From a virus (taxonomy: Duplodnaviria > Heunggongvirae > Uroviricota > Caudoviricetes), in IMG/VR virus record IMGVR_UViG_2667527592_000008: a DNA stretch of 39,041 nucleotides; one strand, written 5' to 3'. A model generated the notes under the pieces. That model made no database searches. It worked only from the letters and a program-made list of their open reading frames with translations, and had not been told where the DNA came from. Made by a program: the position numbers and the translations under genes. Below, piece by piece: positions 13,056 through 24,509 of this stretch (position 1 is its first letter; every line of letters starts with the position of its first letter).

Positions 13056-13964
13056 TTACTCCGTCGTACCATCTGAACCAAATGCCATCTGCCAGAAGCC
13101 GTAACCGCCGTTACAGCGCGCTTCGGCACCAAACAGGAACTTCTTACGCTTGAACACGTTGTCGCTGTTGTAGTCCGTCTGCTCCACAAAAACAGGCTTT
13201 TTACGCAGCTGATAAATCAGCGGTTTCACCGGTTTGGTGGTGTCAAACAGGAACCACGCAGAATCCGACGCCAGCTCCGGCATCACCAGCACTTCGGCGG
13301 TATTGCGGTACGGGTTCGGCGTACCGTCCGGGAACTTCTCGGCGGTCATCAGGTAGTTCGCGTCATCCTCCAGCGCCGGTGGCACAACCAGCAGATTCGG
13401 GCGAATTTTAAGGGATGCGCCTTCGTCATCTTTCAGACTACGCATGGCAGTTCTGGCGGCACCGTAGGAGGCTTTCGCTTCGGCAAGCGAGCCAACTTTG
13501 AGTTTTTTGGTGCCTTTGTTGGACACCGATTTACCGGCGACCAGGTGGTCGGTATCAAAGAACGGCTGGCCGTCGTAACAGGGATTGGTAAAACCGTTAC
13601 TGATAAGGGACGCCACAATATCTGCCGGGAGTTCTGCCGCCGACTGTCCGGCTCCTTTTGCCTGAAGGGCATAGCCCATAATCTGGTCGTCCTCGATGTC
13701 GTTACGATCGACTTCAACCGTGGCTTCCCAGTCCTTGTTACGGATGGTGTAGTTAAATGCCGCCAGTGATTTAACGACCTTGTCACCAATCCACTCGCGC
13801 ATTTTCGGGAAACGACTTAACCAGCTGTAGTCGTTTTCCTTGCCGTTTGATGGCACTTCCATTGCCACCTTCTGCCAGTCAGTTGGTGACTGGTCGAAGG
13901 CTTTCTGGAAGGTGGCCTTCAGATTGATAAAAATCTGTTTGACGTTTTTAACGTTGACTAACAC
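13056..13964 (-). CDS. Major capsid protein (Mu T-like)
   Basis: Long ORF in the Mu T position. Start moved to an in-frame GTG preceded by AAGGAG (six-nucleotide spacer), which also removes the overlap with the upstream gene; the ORF track extends to 14006. Confidence 0.85.
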   Translation of the reverse strand: MLVNVKNVKQIFINLKATFQKAFDQSPTDWQKVAMEVPSNGKENDYSWLSRFPKMREWIGDKVVKSLAAFNYTIRNKDWEATVEVDRNDIEDDQIMGYALQAKGAGQSAAELPADIVASLISNGFTNPCYDGQPFFDTDHLVAGKSVSNKGTKKLKVGSLAEAKASYGAARTAMRSLKDDEGASLKIRPNLLVVPPALEDDANYLMTAEKFPDGTPNPYRNTAEVLVMPELASDSAWFLFDTTKPVKPLIYQLRKKPVFVEQTDYNSDNVFKRKKFLFGAEARCNGGYGFWQMAFGSDGTTE

Positions 13965-13974
13965 GTTTTGCTCC

Positions 13975-14370
13975 TTAACTGAAATGAACCCAGACGCCAT
14001 CGCCACAGATGCCGATCACTTTCCCTGCGACAGGACGGGCGCTGCTGTTGTCGGTTTTTGCCACGGTTACGCTGTCTTCCACGTAGCACAGCTTGCCGAC
14101 CTGCGATTGTGTGACCGGGTCTGAGGTGCTGTTCACCATCAGAAAATCTTTGCCGCAACGCACCAGAACGGTGGCGTCGCCATCACTGCCCTTGCTGTTA
14201 TCCACCCAGCCATCAGACACGCCCAGCGTAATCTGTGAGGCCGTGGCACTGGCCGGAACGGCATAACCGGATGCGTTAACGGCCACCATATGACCACCAA
14301 AAATTTCGGTCGTAGCGGCAACCGGCACCGGGTTCAGTTCGCCGTCACGATAGGGGGTATTGCGATCCAT
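13975..14370 (-). CDS. Small head protein between protease/scaffold and capsid (Mu Z position)
   Basis: 131 aa ORF, start abutting the stop of the protease/scaffold gene; serine/threonine-rich. Confidence 0.55.
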   Translation of the reverse strand: MDRNTPYRDGELNPVPVAATTEIFGGHMVAVNASGYAVPASATASQITLGVSDGWVDNSKGSDGDATVLVRCGKDFLMVNSTSDPVTQSQVGKLCYVEDSVTVAKTDNSSARPVAGKVIGICGDGVWVHFS

Positions 14371-15495
14371 TTACTCATCTCCTGCGTAACGGGCGACATC
14401 CTCTGGATCGACGCCCATCATTGAACAAATGGCGATATCAACATCGACGTCATCGCCGGTTTTAATCTGCGCCGGGGCAGGCGACGGCGTTTTGGGTGGT
14501 TTGCCGCCGGTCTGGGTCTGACTGAGCGCAACAAGTTTCGGTGCGTTATCCAGCCAGGACTTAAAGCCGTTGATATCGCGGCTGGCGTAATCTTTCGCCC
14601 AGCCTTCCTGTGCCGGAAGCAGTCGCCCGTCAGACAGCGCCGCCTGAATCAGTGCCCCGGCTTCGGCCTCACCGGACTGTTGCGCCAGTGCGGCATAACG
14701 CCCCTGAAGTTCTTCGAAGGCAGCAAGGGAAATGTGTTTTGACGGGTCATAGGCACTGGCTGACAGGCTGGCGATTTGCTCGTCTTTCTGATTCAGCAGG
14801 GCCAGCAGGCTGACGGATGCCGCCGCCGTTCCCTGACCGTTCGAAATCATGTCAACGACCTTTTGCAGCTCGTTTTTGATATCTTCCGCCGTTGAGGTAA
14901 CCGGGAGGTTAAGCATCCAGCGCAGACTGGACAGCAAATCGTTTAACAGTTCTTCATCCACTGTTGTGGTCTCCGTTTCAGTTGACAGACTCGCCAGACG
15001 GCTGGCCGCAGCCAGCATGACCGCGTCCATACCGTCCAGCGCCGGGGTATTGGTCAGTGCGGCGTGTAACAGTTCGATGACTTCGCCGCGCCGGTTGTAT
15101 CCAAATACCGGGGAAATAAATTTGTACTCACCGGCGGCAATCATGGCCGCCGCGTTCTCCGTCCACTCCACACCGATGGCATACAGGCCCGAACCTTCAC
15201 GCCATTCCACCTGGCTGAACCAGCCCGCCGCCGGTGCGGGCTTGCCGTTGTTTACGGCGCGCAGCGTCTGATGTTCGTAATCAATGACAAAAGGCGTGGC
15301 GCGGGCGGCCACCTGTGCGACAAGCTGCGCGGCCAGTTCAGCAGTCAGCACCCATTTACCGCTTTCGACTTCATCGGTATGTGGGCGACCATCCACCGCG
15401 CTGAACTCGCCTGCCGGTAACAGCTGGATTTCGCTGTGGGTTGCTTTAGTAATTTCGAGGCTTAACGCCGCAATTTTCAGTTTCATACGCGGCAT
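14371..15495 (-). CDS. Prohead protease/scaffold protein (Mu I-like)
   Basis: About 374 aa; MPRMKLKIAALSLEITKATHSEIQLLPAGEFSAVDGRP N-terminus typical of Mu I proteins. Start uncertain (GTG at 15540 or ATG at 15495/15486), none with a clear ribosome-binding site. Confidence 0.75.
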   Translation of the reverse strand: MPRMKLKIAALSLEITKATHSEIQLLPAGEFSAVDGRPHTDEVESGKWVLTAELAAQLVAQVAARATPFVIDYEHQTLRAVNNGKPAPAAGWFSQVEWREGSGLYAIGVEWTENAAAMIAAGEYKFISPVFGYNRRGEVIELLHAALTNTPALDGMDAVMLAAASRLASLSTETETTTVDEELLNDLLSSLRWMLNLPVTSTAEDIKNELQKVVDMISNGQGTAAASVSLLALLNQKDEQIASLSASAYDPSKHISLAAFEELQGRYAALAQQSGEAEAGALIQAALSDGRLLPAQEGWAKDYASRDINGFKSWLDNAPKLVALSQTQTGGKPPKTPSPAPAQIKTGDDVDVDIAICSMMGVDPEDVARYAGDE

Positions 15496-15514
15496 GATGA
15501 CGGAAGGGGAAGCC

Positions 15515-15544
15515 GGGGTACTGTGGAGGGTGTTCAGCACCCTG
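15515..15544. repeat. Copy 1 of conserved palindromic element GGGGTACTGTGGAGGGTGTTCAGCACCCTG
   Basis: Directly visible; inverted repeat GGGTG-TTCAG-CACCC. Lies at the 5' edge of the protease/scaffold gene, downstream of an AT-rich palindromic tract (15574..15603). Confidence 0.6.
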
Positions 15545-15695
15545 CCATAACGCGAAAGGATAAAAGGGGAAATAAAACCGTTTTTAAAACCCTTTTAAAA
15601 ACGATTCTGACGGCATTTATGGGATGCGGTGCTGTTATGCCTCATCCATGAAGCGTTTATGCTGTCACAGCCGATTACAGCGCGTTTGTCGCCAT

Positions 15696-16247
15696 TCAGT
15701 CAATCACACGCGCAAAATAGCGGTTTGCGGTGTTCTCCAGCTCGTCGATGTCGTCCTGCACGAGCTGAAGGAAGGGGCGCGCTGGCATGTTGACCGTATA
15801 CGCTCCGACCGTTGCGCTCTGCACAAAATTACTGTTGCGCTTTTTCACAAAACGGCTGCTGACGCTGCCGTTTTTGTACTGTTTAAAATGCAGGTTCTGC
15901 GTCCGTGCCTGATGGCGGATCTCGCCGCCTTCGTTGTGGATACGGGCATAACGGACGTTTGTCCCGACCGTGGCCTCGTTATTGTTAACCGCAGAGCGGA
16001 TACTGGCAGCCAGTCGCCCGGACTTCTGAAGGATTTGCCCGGGGCCGCGCCGTTTCGCATAGGCCGGACTCCAGCCCATCCATTTCGGGCGACCCTGTTG
16101 TTCAAAGTTAGTCTCAACCGCATCCAGCATGGAGCCTGCAAGCGCCGTCATCAGGTCGCGCCGGTCCTTCACGGAACGAATCAGTTTCCCCAGCGTGGTG
16201 TTATACGCGCTTAAATCAATCTTAATATCCAGTTTACCGCTGCTCAT
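15696..16247 (-). CDS. Virion morphogenesis protein (Mu G-like)
   Basis: 183 aa ORF after the F-like gene, overlapping its stop; Mu G position. Confidence 0.7.
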   Translation of the reverse strand: MSSGKLDIKIDLSAYNTTLGKLIRSVKDRRDLMTALAGSMLDAVETNFEQQGRPKWMGWSPAYAKRRGPGQILQKSGRLAASIRSAVNNNEATVGTNVRYARIHNEGGEIRHQARTQNLHFKQYKNGSVSSRFVKKRNSNFVQSATVGAYTVNMPARPFLQLVQDDIDELENTANRYFARVID

Positions 16248-17410
16248 GATGCCTCCGGTGTGTCCTGCATAACCCAGTCTGTCAGCACGTCATCCTCCAC
16301 CGTCGCCACTGACCAGCGGTCGCCCGACTGTAACGCATACCGCCACGCGTTACCGTCCTGCGTGACATGCTCCGCCCGTTCGATGGTTTGCTGCATCAGC
16401 ACATAGTCGGCGGCGGTCGGGGACGTGTCTGTTGCACTGAGGCGCTTCATGACGTCAGCCGTAAGGTTTACCGTCTGCCGTGCAGCGCCCGTGGCGGCGA
16501 CCTGTTCCGGTGAACGGATGGCCAGCGGATATCGCTGGCGCGCATCCAGTTCGCTGACGTTCGCCAGTCCCCGGGCAAAATCCGGCCCGGTCAGTGTGCC
16601 GGTGACATACTGGCGGGCGCTGCGGTAATCGTATTTTTCCAGTTCCGGCTGCCATGCCACTTTGCCGGGGTTAAAACCGAAGCCCGGGTCGGCGGTATAC
16701 ACGGAGCCGTCCGGCATCTTCAGCCCCATTGTTCTGATGGTCTGGCCCGGCTGGCCATATTCCTGCTCAACCTCAACCAGTCGCCCCTCGCTGCTCTGTA
16801 CCGTCAGGCCATATTTCTCCACATCCGACGCCGAACGCGCCCGGATACGGCAGCGGCAGTGATAACCGTCCGGGGGATATAAAAACGCCCAGACAGGATC
16901 ATCCGCCCGGGCGGTAAAACCGTTCAGGGCGGCGTGTTTCGGGCGGGTGTGAAGGTCCATCACTGCCACGCGCTCAAAATAAGGCCGGTCAGCCACGTTC
17001 GCCATCTGCTGCTGATAACGTCCGGCGTTATATGACGACTGAATATTGGTATCAAATATCGTGCGCAACCGGCGCGGCGTCAGTTGTCTGCCGTACAGTT
17101 CGCCGGTGTCCTCGTCCACAATCAGCCGCTTACCCAGCCAGCCTTTTTTCTCCAGCAGCGGCTCCAGTTGTGCGGCAAACTCCCGGAACGTCCCGCCGTC
17201 AGCCAGTGCCGCCGTCAGGCCATCACGGATATCCTTCAGAACATCCAGTTTCAGCACGCCCGCCACCGTGAACGCCCGGGCGTGTGCGATGTCCTTCACA
17301 TCGTGCCAGCGGAAGCCGATGACGTATCCCTTGCTTTCGAAATACTTAATCGCTTCTTCCGGCTTCAGGGTGTACGCATAACCCAGGTCAACATCGTCAA
17401 CAGTCGGCAT
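16244..17410 (-). CDS. Head morphogenesis protein (Mu F-like minor head protein)
   Basis: 388 aa ORF immediately after the portal gene, with overlapping start; Mu F position and size. Confidence 0.8.
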   Translation of the reverse strand: MPTVDDVDLGYAYTLKPEEAIKYFESKGYVIGFRWHDVKDIAHARAFTVAGVLKLDVLKDIRDGLTAALADGGTFREFAAQLEPLLEKKGWLGKRLIVDEDTGELYGRQLTPRRLRTIFDTNIQSSYNAGRYQQQMANVADRPYFERVAVMDLHTRPKHAALNGFTARADDPVWAFLYPPDGYHCRCRIRARSASDVEKYGLTVQSSEGRLVEVEQEYGQPGQTIRTMGLKMPDGSVYTADPGFGFNPGKVAWQPELEKYDYRSARQYVTGTLTGPDFARGLANVSELDARQRYPLAIRSPEQVAATGAARQTVNLTADVMKRLSATDTSPTAADYVLMQQTIERAEHVTQDGNAWRYALQSGDRWSVATVEDDVLTDWVMQDTPEAS

Positions 17411-18992
17411 TCAGTCGCCCCCAGATATCCGCCACAAAGAATGCCTGCGTCAGCAACTGCCGCAACGTTTCATCCGGCAGCTCCGGCCACGCTTCCGCCA
17501 GTACGTTCATAGCCTCGTCTGCATCCCGGCCTTCCTGTATGGCCTGCACCAGTGGGGCCACCAGTTCGTTCATCCCCTGCGCGATGGCCTCTGCCGGAAG
17601 CTCTGCCCGGTCGATGGCGTTCTGTGCCGGGTCGTCCTCCCCGTTGTCCTGCTGACTGAGTGCGGCAACATTCATCCGCTCACGCAGCTGGCTGAGGCCA
17701 GCCTGCACAGGGAGAGACTGTGCCACCGGCACCAGCACCTCTTCGCCGTCTTTCGGGGTGGGGATGCCGGTTTTTTTGCGCACCCACGACGCCGGGATAT
17801 CCTTCATCCCCACATTGTTGAGCAACACGCTGACGGCTTCCGCCACGCCCTTAATGTCAGCTTCCTGCTGCACATCAAACACCAGGCGCGGAAGACGGCG
17901 TGACGGGATATCCTGCCAGCCGTTGAGACTGGCCATCATCTGTATCAGACTGCTGAACATGCCGGACAGCTGGCGTGCATCAGCGGTCAGAATGTCGTGC
18001 CGGACCTCGTTATGGACATTACCCAGTGCGTTGGTGGAGGTTTTACCGTCGGCCTGGCTGGTCAGCGTACTGCCCAGAATCACTTTTGAGGTGGTACGCT
18101 CCGCCCATTCCACCATCGACATGAACGCCTCCGGTCCGCCGGATGCGGCTTCCTTGAACTCGATTTCGTTACCCTGCGGCAGGGCTGCCACCGCTTCATG
18201 ACCCAGATTGACCAGCGCCTCAAGAATGTTATCCCGGTCTTCGTCACTGGTGCCCTGTGCATAGTACGCAATGCGCGCTGGAAGACCGTAAATCTCCAGA
18301 AATTCCGCCATATCACGCAGCGCAAAGTTTTTAAACAGATACGGCCAGACCAGTACGCGGAACAGGCCGGATGAACCCAGGAACCCCGACCGGGCGTTGT
18401 AACGGTGAACTAGCCAGCCGAACGGCCACAATGCGGAACCGTCCTTACCGTCTTCCCCACGGTTGCCGTCATCCAGCCGGAGTTCGTCATTGTGTTCCGG
18501 CAGAGTTATGAACCAGTTATGCGGGCGCAGCGTCACCGCATCCGGTAACCATGTTTTATCCACGAACGCCCAGCTGATTTCCTGACAGCTGAAGCCGTAA
18601 CCGACACTGCTCATCCCGTTGAGGATGATGTCCTCCATGTCCGGGATGCCGTGCAGCCATTCATCCACGGCGGCGGCCAGCTCCTTTTCTGCCTTCGAGG
18701 CATTGCGGGGCGGCTCCACCGACCAGTCCAGCGTCAGCAACGCTTTTTTGCGCTTTTCCATCTCGGCGAACAGATGGCCATCACGTTCTTCCATATCCGC
18801 AAACAGCATCGCCTGCGCCGGAAGATAACCGCGTTCGGCTGCTTCCAGAATACGCGGCAGTTTTCTGATGTTCAGACCACGGGACGGGTGATCGGGATAG
18901 ATGCGCAGTCGTTCCGCCACTCTGACCGACTGCGTTGTTTTGAGTGCCTCACGTTTCAGCGGGCGTCCGTAAATATCAACAAGCTGTGCCAT
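17397..18992 (-). CDS. Portal protein (Mu gp29/H-like, DUF935 type)
   Basis: 531 aa ORF directly downstream of the large terminase gene; N-terminus MAQLVDIYGRPLKREALKTTQSVRVAERLRIYPDHP is typical of Mu-like portals. Confidence 0.9.
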   Translation of the reverse strand: MAQLVDIYGRPLKREALKTTQSVRVAERLRIYPDHPSRGLNIRKLPRILEAAERGYLPAQAMLFADMEERDGHLFAEMEKRKKALLTLDWSVEPPRNASKAEKELAAAVDEWLHGIPDMEDIILNGMSSVGYGFSCQEISWAFVDKTWLPDAVTLRPHNWFITLPEHNDELRLDDGNRGEDGKDGSALWPFGWLVHRYNARSGFLGSSGLFRVLVWPYLFKNFALRDMAEFLEIYGLPARIAYYAQGTSDEDRDNILEALVNLGHEAVAALPQGNEIEFKEAASGGPEAFMSMVEWAERTTSKVILGSTLTSQADGKTSTNALGNVHNEVRHDILTADARQLSGMFSSLIQMMASLNGWQDIPSRRLPRLVFDVQQEADIKGVAEAVSVLLNNVGMKDIPASWVRKKTGIPTPKDGEEVLVPVAQSLPVQAGLSQLRERMNVAALSQQDNGEDDPAQNAIDRAELPAEAIAQGMNELVAPLVQAIQEGRDADEAMNVLAEAWPELPDETLRQLLTQAFFVADIWGRLNADC

Positions 18993-18995
18993 TAA

Positions 18996-20693
18996 TTACC
19001 ATCCTCCTGAACCAAAACGCCCGCCACGGTCACGCCCGCTGCTGCGTGGGGTGTGTATCTGAAATTTTGCGCTGCGCGATACCGCCAGCGTCCACAGCAT
19101 GTGCAGACAGTCCGGGCCATCATCGTGGTCGGCTTTGGGGTAGTGGCGCAGCTGGTCAATCAGCGTCTGATGTGCCGGACTGATGCGGATCAGGCCGTTG
19201 GCCATATGCGGCTGAAGGGACTCAATACGCAGCGCTTTATCCTCCAGCGGGATGACCGGCAGCGCCGGAACCGGCACGCCCAGCGCCGCCGAACGCTCAA
19301 CCAGCACGGTACGCAGAAACTCCTGAAACTGGACGGACTCAAACGACCAGCACAGACAGTGGTATTCCCGCTGATACTTAATCACGTCTTCGATAAGTTT
19401 GTTTGGCAGACGTCGGCGGATATCGGCTTCAACCACATCCAGAATGCCGGTAAAGCGGTTAAAGCCCCCCACGAGAATGGCCGACGGGTCGCGGTTTTTG
19501 TTTTTCTTCCCGAGACTGGGGTCAACAGCACCATAAAACACCCATTCATCAAGACGGTTAACCCAGAACTTAATGCAGCCCGCAAACAGCGCATCTTCAC
19601 CGCTGACCGGGTCGTTCTGGTATTCAGAATCAAAGGTGTCATGACCGTCACGGACACGGATTTTCATCAGTGCCAGCAGGGGACGCGCCGCCCATGACAC
19701 CACCGACCCGGCGAGCATGTCGGCTTCGTTCTGTCGGTAAAGTGCCTCTGCTGCTTCCGGCTGTTTGTTGCGGATGAGTTCTTCCCACTCGTCCCACAGC
19801 TTCATATTGGCAGGCCACTGAATGACGGCCTTAAAACGGGCCGTTTTCCACATCGGGTTATTGAGTGTGCGCGACAGTACGGAGTCGTAATGCAGGATGG
19901 TTCCGATATAAATAATATCTGTTTTACCACCAGCCTCGCCCAGCGGCATCACGGTTTTGGTGAGCCAGTCATGCAGCTTGTCGCGCTGCTCCGGGTTACG
20001 CACCATCTCGTCGTTCTCGATGTCGTCGAGGATAACCAGGTCAGGACGGTACGGACCGTGGCGCAGACCACGCAGCTTTTTACCACTACCGGCAACGGTC
20101 ACCTTGATATTGTTGGCCGTGACGATGGTCCCCATACGCCAGACGCGACCCTGCCCGCACACTTCCGGGAAATCGTTTTTTAAACGGGGGTTAAATTCCA
20201 GTTCAGCCTTGATGGCTTCCAGCATCGGATAAGCCTGGTCGATACTGTCCATAATGATGACCGGATAATGCTTAATGGCCCGGATAATGGTCCACAGGGT
20301 AAACAACTGAGTCACCAGCGTGGATTTTGCTTCACCACGGGGCGCGGCGATGGCGTCGTTCTCCGGGTCCGGGCTTGCCACAACCTGTGGCAGACGGCTG
20401 AACAGGTATTTATGCAGCTCGCTTTTTGCCGGGTTGCGGACGTAGTGCGGGAAATAGTTTTCGACAAAATAATCGTAGCCCGTCACCGGGTCACAGACTG
20501 CCGCCCGGCGGGCCTGTGTGGCCTGCGGGTTTACATCGAACCCCAGACATTCAGCCTCGATGGTCTGGCGGAGGTTGGCGATGTACTCCTGCAGGCTTCT
20601 CTGAAACTCTTTAATGGAAAGTTTACGTTTTGCCACGTCACACCTGCGCTGCTTCTGCCTGCGCTTTTTCGATACGTGCGCAGGCGATATCAA
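18996..20693 (-). CDS. Terminase large subunit (Mu gp28-like)
   Basis: 565 aa ORF with ATPase-like and nuclease-like regions, followed by the portal gene. The ATG at 20693 overlaps the methyltransferase gene by 56 nt; an in-frame GTG at 20636, one base after the methyltransferase stop, is an alternative start. Confidence 0.9.
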   Translation of the reverse strand: MISPAHVSKKRRQKQRRCDVAKRKLSIKEFQRSLQEYIANLRQTIEAECLGFDVNPQATQARRAAVCDPVTGYDYFVENYFPHYVRNPAKSELHKYLFSRLPQVVASPDPENDAIAAPRGEAKSTLVTQLFTLWTIIRAIKHYPVIIMDSIDQAYPMLEAIKAELEFNPRLKNDFPEVCGQGRVWRMGTIVTANNIKVTVAGSGKKLRGLRHGPYRPDLVILDDIENDEMVRNPEQRDKLHDWLTKTVMPLGEAGGKTDIIYIGTILHYDSVLSRTLNNPMWKTARFKAVIQWPANMKLWDEWEELIRNKQPEAAEALYRQNEADMLAGSVVSWAARPLLALMKIRVRDGHDTFDSEYQNDPVSGEDALFAGCIKFWVNRLDEWVFYGAVDPSLGKKNKNRDPSAILVGGFNRFTGILDVVEADIRRRLPNKLIEDVIKYQREYHCLCWSFESVQFQEFLRTVLVERSAALGVPVPALPVIPLEDKALRIESLQPHMANGLIRISPAHQTLIDQLRHYPKADHDDGPDCLHMLWTLAVSRSAKFQIHTPRSSGRDRGGRFGSGGW

Positions 20694-21378
20694 AATACTG
20701 GTTAGTCATTTCAATGCCGGTAAACCGTCCGCCACGGGCAAGTACCGGGATGGCGGTGGTGCCGCTTCCCATAAACGGATCGAGAACGTGCGCATCCGGT
20801 GCCAGCGGTTTAACCAGCTCGGCCATCAGCTGAACCGGCTTTGCGGTCATGTGCAGTTTTTCGGACGGGACAACACGCTGCGTAATCACACCCGGGAACG
20901 GGCCACCGTGCGGACATTTGTCGAGTTTTCCGTTGCTGCCCCAGACCACATACTCGGCCTGATGCCGGAAATAGCCGGTGTGTGGCGCACGGGAAGCCTG
21001 CGTTTTATCCCAGACAACAAGACCACGCCACAGCACACCACCGGCCTGAAAAACGTCGGTCATGGTGGGAAGCTGTCGCCAGTCACTGAACACCATGACA
21101 TAACCACCGGGGCGCACAAGGCGGGCAGCCCCGGACATCCACAGGGTGCTCCAGTATGCCCAGCTGCGCTGGTCGCGGTTATCCCCGCTGAACTCGGCAT
21201 ACTGGGTGTGACCGACATACTTGTCCGAAGGGGCCATGCTGCGGTCTGATTTATGTGTGCCACCACTGCTGTAAGGCGGGTCGGTAATGACGGCATCAAA
21301 ACGTTCGGATAACGCCGGCAGCACATCAAGAACATCACCGCAATACAACGTTGCGTTACCAATAATCTGTTTTTGCAT
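20638..21378 (-). CDS. DNA methyltransferase, beta-class (probably N6-adenine; N4-cytosine not excluded)
   Basis: 246 aa with catalytic DPPY near the N-terminus and AdoMet-binding FMGSGTT near the C-terminus; the motif IV-before-I order defines beta-class amino-methyltransferases. No restriction endonuclease partner is adjacent. Confidence 0.85.
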   Translation of the reverse strand: MQKQIIGNATLYCGDVLDVLPALSERFDAVITDPPYSSGGTHKSDRSMAPSDKYVGHTQYAEFSGDNRDQRSWAYWSTLWMSGAARLVRPGGYVMVFSDWRQLPTMTDVFQAGGVLWRGLVVWDKTQASRAPHTGYFRHQAEYVVWGSNGKLDKCPHGGPFPGVITQRVVPSEKLHMTAKPVQLMAELVKPLAPDAHVLDPFMGSGTTAIPVLARGGRFTGIEMTNQYFDIACARIEKAQAEAAQV

Positions 21379-23538: not shown

Positions 23539-23674
23539 GAGTTTCTCCTGTAAATCTGAGCCACTGACGGCCCGTAAATAACACCCGGTCAAAGGCACAG
23601 AATGACTTTTGCCGGGCGCTATCCCTTAAGGTGCCTTGTGGTCTGAGTGGACAGGGTAAACGGTATGCTGTGGT

Positions 23675-23704
23675 GGGTACTGCTGGGGGTGTTCAGCACC
23701 CCCG
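23675..23704. repeat. Copy 2 of conserved palindromic element GGGTACTGCTGGGGGTGTTCAGCACCCCCG
   Basis: Directly visible; 7-bp inverted repeat GGGGGTG-TTCAG-CACCCCC. About 140 bp upstream of the first lysis gene; near-identical to the copy at 15515..15544. Confidence 0.65.
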
Positions 23705-23726: not shown

Positions 23727-24014
23727 TTAAAGAGAAGCGAGTTTTAATGGTGGCTTATAACATGCCCGCGCCAGCAGGTTAGCTCTTTCCACGGCATTAC
23801 GCATTTCCCGTTCTGCGTCAATCATTCTGTTTACGGCTGACAGCACTTCATCATGATTCGTTACTGATTCCGGGCTTTGGGCCTGTTTCGCCAGGTAACT
23901 GGATAAACTGCACATTTCAGCATGTCGGCGACGGGCTGCATCCCGGGCCTTGTCTGAAAATGCGGTATATTCACCGAGTACTGCATAGTCGATATCGGTG
24001 TCAGAACGCATCAT
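23727..24014 (-). CDS. Hypothetical protein in the position of Mu C
   Basis: 95 aa ORF with a strong ribosome-binding site (AAGGAGA, seven-nucleotide spacer, ATG) immediately after the Mor-gene terminator; no recognisable helix-turn-helix. Confidence 0.5.
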   Translation of the reverse strand: MMRSDTDIDYAVLGEYTAFSDKARDAARRRHAEMCSLSSYLAKQAQSPESVTNHDEVLSAVNRMIDAEREMRNAVERANLLARACYKPPLKLASL

Positions 24015-24040: not shown

Positions 24041-24075
24041 ATTAATCAAAAAGCCCCACCTGGGTGGGGCTTTTC
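24041..24075 (-). terminator. Intrinsic terminator overlapping the 3' end of the Mor/C-like gene
   Basis: Minus strand reads GCCCCACC-CAGG-TGGGGC then TTTTTGATTAA, with the stop codon inside the U-tract; the plus strand also shows a T-run after the stem. Confidence 0.7.
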
Positions 24076-24509
24076 AGCGAAGTCTGTTTTTGTCGTCGGT
24101 GTATCAGTTGCCATGCGTACCGGTCTGAAATGCCGTAACGGGGACAGAGCAGTGCCAGCGCCTGCCGGTGTGAGCATCCGCCTTTTACATGCTGCTGTAA
24201 ATCAGCCATAAAACGGGTGTTACGCAGGGCACGTAACGCATGATCGCAACGGGGAATGTAAAACGGTGCGCCGCCAAGAAAACGGATCAGTTTGTTGATT
24301 TCGTCTTCGGTCAGCACGTCATGTAACAGGGCATGGACACCGCCGGTGCGTTCGGCGTGTACGCCGGTTTTACCGCTTAACGTCACGCCACCAAAAGAAC
24401 GAATCAACCGGGTCAGGGCGGGGAAGCCAATCACGCTAATCAGTTGCTGCACGGAATCGGGCAGCAGTGCCTGCGCATCGCGAAGATCTGTTTCACTGAA
24501 GGTCTGCAT
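24042..24509 (-). CDS. Mor/C-family transcriptional activator
   Basis: 155 aa; C-terminal region GGAPFYIPRCDHALRALRNTRFMADL...LCPRYGISDRYAWQLIHRRQ follows the Mor/C helix-turn-helix pattern. Located after the GemA-like gene, as Mor is in Mu. Confidence 0.8.
   Translation of the reverse strand: MQTFSETDLRDAQALLPDSVQQLISVIGFPALTRLIRSFGGVTLSGKTGVHAERTGGVHALLHDVLTEDEINKLIRFLGGAPFYIPRCDHALRALRNTRFMADLQQHVKGGCSHRQALALLCPRYGISDRYAWQLIHRRQKQTSLKSPTQVGLFD

Follow-up and report, generated by a model that had tools for sequence, protein, structure and literature searches.

In phage Mu, the gap between the late genes G and I is annotated with a gyrase cut site, a predicted terminator and the late promoter PI. 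In the Mu strong gyrase site (SGS) the right arm is essential, whereas the left arm is dispensable (PMC10052514, PMC13284261), and phased anisotropic bending signals in the right arm are thought to drive wrapping of the DNA on the GyrA C-terminal domain (PMC10052514, PMC13284261, PMC6379681). In gyrase structures a 49-bp wrap flanks a 35-bp G-segment (PMC13284261), and the one foreign site reported to support Mu replication is the SGS from a Mu-like prophage in E. coli O157:H7 Sakai (PMC10052514). The C-dependent late promoters of Mu, Plys, PI, PP and Pmom (PMC2582627, PMC4461284), are recognized through the C site, a 16-bp imperfect dyad centred at -43.5 (PMC2582627). Here we analyse an AT-rich palindromic tract that lies in the corresponding G-I gap of a Mu-like E. 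coli prophage, within a stretch of 39,041 nucleotides (IMG/VR record IMGVR_UViG_2667527592_000008; the whole stretch is called the window below). We favour, with moderate confidence, the explanation that this gap is a Mu-like central control module, in which the arm of a gyrase site is combined with a C-type late promoter. The explanation is built on sequence, conservation, homology and geometry, from which we infer that gyrase binds and cleaves, that transcripts terminate, that the activator binds and where transcription starts.

All genes concerned here lie on the minus strand, a correction to the earlier note in which the tract was first remarked. The gene upstream of the gap ends with the stop codon TGA at 15698-15696, and the gap proper spans 15487-15695; it measures 209 bp and not 155 bp, as had been supposed, because the I gene most likely starts at the ATG at 15486, the start given by PGAP and kept in relatives, and not at the GTG at 15540. 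Within the gap, the AT block CGTTTTTAAAAGGGTTTTAAAAACGGTTTTATTT (15570..15603, minus strand) consists of two TnAn units in phase, which together make up a perfect 11-bp inverted repeat whose arms, 15579-15589 and 15593-15603, are separated by 3 nt (CGTTTTTAAAA-GGG-TTTTAAAAACG on the coding strand). The 30-mer AAAACCGTTTTTAAAACCCTTTTAAAAACG that had drawn attention to the tract is present at 15574..15603, and its palindromic nature is borne out by this repeat. Since each TnAn unit is self-complementary, the tract is at once an inverted repeat and a 12-bp direct repeat. Perfect inverted repeats of at least 11 bp with a short loop occur at three places in the 39-kb window; composition-preserving shuffles yield 0.045 of them per window, and only 7 of 200 shuffles contain any. 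Another of the three, a perfect 13-bp repeat with a 4-nt loop (GGTATTGCCGTTC, 4048-4080), is found within the baseplate V-like gene (3625-4278, minus strand).

The tract is a genuine non-random feature of a known kind. The stretch 15564-15623 is the top 60-bp stretch of the window for A/T periodicity at 10-12.5 bp, and with the measure left unchanged the right arm of Mu, which served as positive control, falls at 0.01-0.02% of Mu windows (40-50 bp). Periodicity of the gap is likewise enriched across related loci, 15 of 43 ranking in the top tenth of blocks. Downstream of the block, a pyrimidine-rich continuation with phased T-runs, CCCCTTTTATCCTTTCGCGTTATGGCA (15543..15569, minus strand), aligns to Mu GTTTTATCTTCCTTTC; 5 of its 27 columns vary, and it could serve as the distal arm, as a terminator tail, or as both. 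On the other side of the tract, three copies of CATAA(A/C)NGC at 15661, 15639 and 15621 (minus strand; 15613-15661), separated by 22 and 18 bp, lengthen the in-phase A/T signal upstream of it to ~100 bp.

The block is also conserved. Among ten E. coli variants, 1 of its 34 columns varies, as opposed to 26 of 92 columns in the upstream part of the gap (Fisher p = 0.0012). Its palindromic form recurs in Buttiauxella and in a Klebsiella phage, and in Intestinirhabdus, Trabulsiella, Photorhabdus and Xenorhabdus it takes the form of 11-bp direct repeats of TAAAnGGGGTT; conservation extends further to Mu and to an Sp18-type prophage of O157:H7. Of 43 loci, 10 carry tandem TTWAA-type units within 300 nt upstream of I, against an expectation of 0.015 per 300 nt, and such units reach as far as beta-proteobacterial relatives.

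Comparison with Mu itself points in the same direction. In the best local alignment of the two gaps, TTTTTAAAAGGGTTTTAAAAACGGTTTTATTTCCCCTTTTATCCTTTC of the window, which comprises the AT block and the T tract, pairs with Mu TTTTTAAACCGGTATTTAACGGTGTATGAATCCCGTTTTATCTTCCTTTC (Mu 17912-17962) at a score of 28, against 16.5 +/- 2.6 for dinucleotide shuffles, a score reached in 2 of 1000 of them. Top-ranking periodicity and this match to the right arm of Mu (p ~0.002) are what an SGS arm with extended phased bending signals would display. Mu and the Sp18-type prophage share the stretch GATTTT(C/T)(T/A)AACC(T/G)GTATTTAACGG (0 of 1000 shuffles), and the GATTTT..AACC.GTATTTAACGG block of the Sp18-type gap is a point of likeness to the gap studied here. 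At the DNA level the Sp18-type prophage has no match to the lineage of our prophage, that of enteropathogenic E. coli (EPEC) E2348/69. The O157:H7 sequence analysed is that of strain H2495, which we assume to be of the Sakai prophage type.

The location is that of an SGS as well, a central G-I gap in a transposable Mu-like genome. The prophage measures 35,975 bp, and the AT block lies at 54% of it when counted from the repressor (c) end; the homologous block of Klebsiella phage ST405-OXA48phi1.1 lies at 51% of its genome and the Mu SGS at 48.7%. In ten complete Mu-like genomes, gene I has its start at 49-53%. As in Mu, the proposed arm is on the I-gene side of the putative cut, its phased flexible A/T blocks alternate with G/C, it overlaps a hairpin with a U-run, and a C-type late promoter comes next. 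Other Mu-like prophages (O157:H7 Sakai, H. influenzae, S. Typhi, N. meningitidis) likewise have a candidate SGS in their central gap; to our knowledge, the site of the E2348/69-type lineage is not among the central gyrase sites tested earlier. It differs from the Mu SGS in several respects: the flanking proteins are only ~30-45% identical, so the lineage is a separate one; its two TnAn blocks, set 12 bp apart, make up a perfect palindrome; arm and putative core are separated by 4 nt less, and the core is variable; and the site divides the prophage 46/54 rather than 49/51 as in Mu.

The position of a cut was sought with a one-arm A/T template derived from the Topo-Seq consensus (PMC6379681, supplementary sheet S2). 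When the 133-bp Mu SGS Topo-Seq fragment is aligned to the consensus, the 4-bp stagger falls on AATC (17876-17879), matching the annotation, and the one-arm template gives a local maximum exactly on the true cut in Mu. In the window a local maximum (top 0.2%) is found at the start of the arm, at 15633; a cut there would place the AT tract in the middle of the predicted 49-bp wrap. The candidate cleavage core, proposed with low confidence, is GGCATAACAGCACCGCA (15625..15641, minus strand), where a 4-bp stagger is predicted near 15637-15631; this core is similar to GGCATAAAATCAGCCGCA, the sequence at the Mu cut site, and the template optimum at 15633-15637 falls inside it, in a core that varies among the E. 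coli variants.

These observations suggest how the site might work. The AT block would be the gyrase-wrapped (right) arm of a near-central SGS, whose flexible TnAn/G-rich units recur at 11-12-bp intervals; host gyrase would wrap them round a GyrA C-terminal domain, cleaving ~30-40 bp upstream of the AT run, near 15631-15637. Processive supercoiling from such a near-central site would help the prophage ends to meet for replicative transposition. The palindrome would then be a by-product of two tandem self-complementary TnAn units, and in the E. coli lineage it may double as an intrinsic terminator, albeit a weak one, that ends the upstream lysis/head operon, a role predicted for the overlapping hairpin in Mu.

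The second part of the proposed module is the late promoter. The earlier note had seen in the gap a compound late promoter, and part of that view stands: the sequence supports a late promoter for the protease/capsid block, and the GGGTG...CACCC element named there overlaps the probable activator site. The 15-mer GGGTGTTCAGCACCC lies at 15528..15542 and recurs in the window, being exact at 15528 and 23687 and carrying 2 mismatches at 3612; at up to 3 mismatches there are 8 matches against 1.2 expected, a number that none of 100 shuffles attains. The perfect GGGTG/CACCC palindrome is confined to the E. coli lineage, and the unit that is conserved is offset from it by 4 nt. This unit is a 16-bp imperfect dyad, GCTGAACACCCTCCAC (15523..15538, minus strand), which overlaps the 15528-15542 element and which we propose as the PI-type site of a Mor/C-family activator. 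On the minus strand the conserved unit reads GCTGAAC(A/C)CCCTCAGC; it is conserved upstream of I in 15 related loci, with 1 of 27 columns varying among the E. coli variants, and its consensus is GCTGA-N6-TCAGC in enterobacteria and GCTGAAG-CC-CTTCAGC in Natronospirillum (L021).

The geometry of the promoter is constant. Numbering from the first G of the dyad, a -10-like hexamer of the form yAnnnT is found at 40-45 or 41-46 in every motif-bearing locus and in all three copies of the window, the hexamers being CATCAT, TATGCT, CACAAT, CAGAAT, TACACT, TACCCT, CAGACT, GACACT, TAATCT and others. In front of I it is CATCAT (15494..15499, minus strand). The start codon of I falls at positions 51-54 in the 15 loci and in the window (16 of 16), and with a predicted start at about position 52 the centre of the dyad is at -43.5. 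A dyad of about 16 bp near -43.5, followed by a -10 hexamer and lacking a -35 element, is the arrangement of a Mu-type late promoter. An inverted repeat that flanks the -10 hexamer (for example, ATGCCGCC-GACACT-GGCGGCAT-G), and whose 3' arm ends in the I start codon, was noted at L009 9962-9985, in L010 and at L011 9951-9973 and ~1789-1811, as well as in Mu (L001 9027-9049) and the Sp18-type prophage (L047 ~1815-1835); if transcribed from an upstream promoter, this repeat would fold over the start codon.

Copies of the promoter head three late operons of the window, those for lysis, head and baseplate. The Plys-type copy (23653..23697, minus strand), with the dyad GCTGAACACCCCCAGC at 23697..23682 and the -10 hexamer TACCCT at 23658..23653, lies upstream of the holin/lysis genes (holin PF16931). 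The third copy (3569..3622, minus strand), with the dyad GCTGAACACCCTCACC at 3622..3607 and CAGACT at 3583..3578, precedes a baseplate-wedge gene (phrog_180) whose ATG at 3571 is exactly 7 nt past the hexamer, at dyad position 52. Each close relative has two dyad copies within range, one before I and another ~8 kb further upstream that directly follows the activator gene. The prophage itself encodes the protein presumed to read the dyad, a single 155-aa member of the Mor/C family (24042..24509, minus strand; PF08765; phrog_836, 'late transcriptional activator', E 3.5e-42). Homologues of it are found in 11 of 14 motif-bearing loci versus 2 of 29 others, a difference in which phylogeny and short contigs are confounding factors. 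The last codons of the activator gene are overlapped by a canonical terminator hairpin, AAAAGCCCCACCCAGGTGGGGCTTTTT (24045-24075, minus strand), and the gene is followed by a 95-aa open reading frame of unknown function (23727-24014, phrog_7152) and then by the lysis late promoter.

The activator would bind the dyad at 15538..15523, centred at -43.5, and transcription would initiate at the ATG of I or 1 nt before it (15487/15486), with CATCAT as a weak -10. As the A of the ATG lies 7-8 nt past the hexamer, the mRNAs of I and of the baseplate gene are predicted to be leaderless. The remark in the earlier note that the candidate start codons have no ribosome-binding site was correct, and a predicted leaderless mRNA would explain this absence better. 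In the loci that bear the NCTGAAN dyad, L003-L007, L009-L011, L013, L014, L018, L021, L023 and L035, the I start is 6-8 nt past the hexamer, and the same spacing is seen for the gp46-like baseplate gene of the window (compare the stretches 15484-15499 and 3569-3583). Other interpretations of the start region were set aside. On inspection, a sigma-54 reading of TGGCAG...TGAA has the wrong spacing and GC element and is absent from the other copies; CTGAAC as a -35 element, with a start ~15 nt upstream of the ATG, conflicts with the sole consistent -10-like hexamer, which is at 40-45 and not at 24-31; and an upstream mini-ORF or translational coupling, as an account of a second ATG at 15495, was discarded, as that ATG lies inside the predicted -10.

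The promoter resembles those of Mu in its presumed reliance on a Mor/C-family activator, in the 16-bp dyad at -43.5 that overlaps the -35 region, in its recognizable weak -10 without a -35, and in the several copies that head lysis, head and tail/baseplate operons. It differs in its recognition sequence, which is of the GCTGAA-N4-TTCAGC type; in the single Mor/C homologue of the prophage, where Mu has a Mor-then-C cascade; in the place of the third promoter, which is not inside N but separates the baseplate genes that resemble gp45 and gp46; and in the leaderless I and baseplate transcripts predicted here, whereas Mu I has an annotated ribosome-binding site. A leaderless phage mRNA is known in lambda cI transcribed from PRM. 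As with cI, the predicted transcripts start at the A of the AUG and have no Shine-Dalgarno sequence; unlike cI, they would belong to late structural genes, are conserved across a clade and are predicted from promoter geometry.

Several observations weigh against the proposal of a central module with a gyrase-site arm. Some Mu-like central sites, those of H. influenzae and S. Typhi, were reported by Oram and Pato in 2004 to be cleaved by gyrase and yet not to support Mu replication, and therefore positional homology is no guarantee of SGS strength. The AT block is 1.5 kb from the exact centre (46/54). The one-arm template is only modestly specific, the true Mu site reaching only 0.9% genome-wide, and so is the periodicity measure, by which the relatives rank from 0.02% to 2%. 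Scans with the whole 133-bp Topo-Seq gyrase consensus (exact-base and W/S) left the Mu SGS outside the top matches; this control having failed, they were discarded. Across the E. coli variants the candidate core differs at 6-7 sites and by a 1-nt indel, and it shows no conservation in the other genera compared, which weakens the prediction of the exact cut; such variability accords with reports that changes outside the right arm are tolerated. For the E. coli lineage, a terminator would account equally well for an invariant AT block and for its hairpin with a U-run. As to the promoter, the -10 CATCAT is weak, and a consensus scan of 15000-16300 for sigma-70 promoters and terminators found neither in the gap. 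A sigma-70 match is not expected where a promoter is activator-dependent, although its absence is not positive evidence.

It is possible, though we hold it only as a tentative alternative, that the AT palindrome is primarily an intrinsic terminator, which ends the lysis/terminase/head transcript after G and insulates the PI unit, and that its resemblance to a gyrase arm is secondary; such a role is compatible with the central module that we favour. Read along the coding strand, the tract can form a hairpin of 11-16 bp (-12.3 kcal/mol, z -2.75), closed at its base by C-G and G-C pairs and followed by the U-rich GUUUUAUUUCCCCUUUUAUCC. The homologous stretch of Mu is annotated as a predicted terminator (-19.8 kcal/mol, z -3.7, then UUUUAUCUU), the 3' end of the Mu lys transcript was reportedly mapped to the G-I gap by Zha, Zhao and Howe in 1994, and the palindromic form is the one shared by Buttiauxella and the Klebsiella phage. 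A canonical terminator directly after G, of the form AAACGCGCTG...CAGCGCGTTTTTATC, is present in Buttiauxella, Intestinirhabdus, Trabulsiella and the Klebsiella phage (-15.1 kcal/mol and z -4.9 in Buttiauxella). In the window only a degenerate remnant of this hairpin is found, CAAACGCGCTGTAATCGGCTGTGACAGC (15661..15688, minus strand; z -1.2, no U-run), and therefore the AT hairpin may have taken over. Against this, the stem is almost wholly A-U, with 2 G-C pairs in its perfect part, and is not called by the terminator scan, which is uninformative for a stem so rich in A and U; for 15300-15900, no match was obtained from Rfam with E values allowed up to 1. Intestinirhabdus, Trabulsiella, Photorhabdus and Xenorhabdus retain the block where no hairpin is possible (z 0.1, 0.6, -1.1), and these hairpin-less relatives carry a separate strong terminator upstream. 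That the block is kept without hairpin potential indicates a constraint on the DNA pattern and not on RNA pairing; the arms themselves are invariant, so there are no compensatory changes to consult. Termination is thus plausible as a second function of the AT tract, not as its primary one.

We consider it improbable that the tandem TTTAAA(C)-GGG units are a sequence-specific site for a protein other than gyrase, be it a nucleoid protein (Fis, IHF, HU, H-NS), MuB or an unknown phage domain-organising factor. The formation of the Mu domain does depend also on IHF, Fis, HU and MuB (PMC3820752), and specific bases (TTTTTAAA..GG..TTTAA) are kept across Mu, the Sp18-type prophage and the enterobacterial and beta-proteobacterial relatives, a base-level conservation beyond what generic bendability might need. 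However, by inspection the tract has no match to the IHF (WATCAANNNNTTR) or Fis consensus, and the homologous stretch of Mu is a gyrase arm defined experimentally. Moreover, the unit sequences differ between clades (TTAAACAGG, TTTTAACCGGGC, TTTATAAAGCG) while the alternation of A/T and G/C at 11-12 bp is kept, as expected of a structural signal.

Phased A/T-rich DNA upstream of promoters can stimulate transcription, and the earlier note took the AT tract for such a UP-like or curved module boosting the late promoter together with the activator site. The tract does lie upstream of a genuine late-promoter motif, with strand and gap shared, and the T-rich 15569-15543 falls at about -55 to -82; the tract proper, however, occupies -87 to -116 relative to the predicted start, upstream of the -40 to -60 range in which UP elements are contacted by the alpha C-terminal domain of RNA polymerase, its best homologue is the Mu SGS arm, and TnAn blocks, which are flexible, are said by Hagerman (1986) not to be statically curved as the AnTn type is. 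This part of the compound-promoter claim is unlikely to hold, because the tract is too far upstream, it is absent at the promoter copies at 23697 and 3622, and the region from -60 to +8 suffices for Mu Plys (PMC2582627).

The open reading frames, gene order and Pfam matches show that the window is a Mu-like prophage of E. coli whose late genes are carried by the minus strand, among them the portal gene (17397-18992), F (16244-17410), G, I and T (major head, 13056-14006). The G-like gene upstream of the gap (15696..16247; PF05069, E 2e-26), which PGAP labels 'phage virion morphogenesis protein', occupies the position of Mu gene G, and I, the protease/scaffold gene, extends over 14371-15486 (PF10123, E 2e-98). 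The genes for GemA and for the Mor-family protein are sited further up from the late genes. A DNA methyltransferase gene (20638-21378, minus strand) lies in the late operon between the DUF1804 and large terminase genes, a position at which Mu has no gene. In the Sp18-type prophage, RefSeq annotates L047 1065-1145, between the F-like and G-like genes, as 'tRNA-OTHER' on the opposite strand. An identical prophage (100%) is found in E. coli GF75, that of EPEC E2348/69 is ~97-98% identical, and the E2348/69-type lineage is present in 55 of 5426 complete E. coli genomes. A nucleotide search of a phage collection gave no near relative, the best match being 71% identical over part of the coding sequence; the nearest sequenced phage is Klebsiella phage ST405-OXA48phi1.1, with gpI 44.5% identical.

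Comparison of the insertions in GF75 (in an RHS element) and E2348/69 (in eutC) gives prophage ends of TGTAAC...CCCCACA. The prophage corresponds to window coordinates -876 to 35,098, its tail-fibre end running 876 bp past window position 1, and the right-hand 3.9 kb of the window (35099-39041) is host DNA outside it, with a disrupted RHS repeat-associated gene. The two insertions, which are independent, are bracketed by apparent 4-bp direct repeats (GAAG and AGTG), whereas a 5 bp duplication is expected from Mu-type transposition, and the assignment of the ends may be one base off (window ~35092-35103; L002 3821-3830 and 39795-39803; L048 3654-3663 and 39379-39387). A second tandem TTAA-type unit, TTAACGGGTTTTAAATG (34905-34921, minus strand), lies ~180 bp from the repressor-proximal end, in a stretch (34884-34983) that ranks among the top A/T-periodic windows; it may be part of an end or enhancer region.

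The basic picture of Mu biology is unchanged by these results, and what is new is limited to the version of the arm carried by this lineage, the recognition motif of its activator and the predicted leaderless architecture, all as read from sequence. A broader statement, to which we lend only tentative credence, would cover both parts of the module: tandem TnAn-GGG units at a spacing of 11-12 bp would be a clade-wide signature, recognisable in sequence, of SGS arms in the Mu-like prophages of gamma- and beta-proteobacteria, or else the site of an unrecognised domain-organising protein, and the late promoters of the clade would start at the A of the start codon, yielding leaderless protease/scaffold and baseplate mRNAs. 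Both the SGS-arm signature and leaderless late promoters may be previously undescribed. If the signature is true, an SGS would be predictable from sequence alone. If the reading that we favour is right, the lineage studied here, carried by ~1% of complete E. coli genomes including that of EPEC E2348/69, would have its own Mu-type central gyrase site, a second diverged natural case from which to learn what in the arm gives a gyrase site its strength. The TnAn/G-rich 11-12-bp pattern could then help to locate similar sites in further transposable prophages. The analysis of the promoters, for its part, offers a predicted recognition motif for a Mor/C-family activator other than those of Mu, together with the prediction that leaderless mRNAs serve for the translation of some late structural genes.

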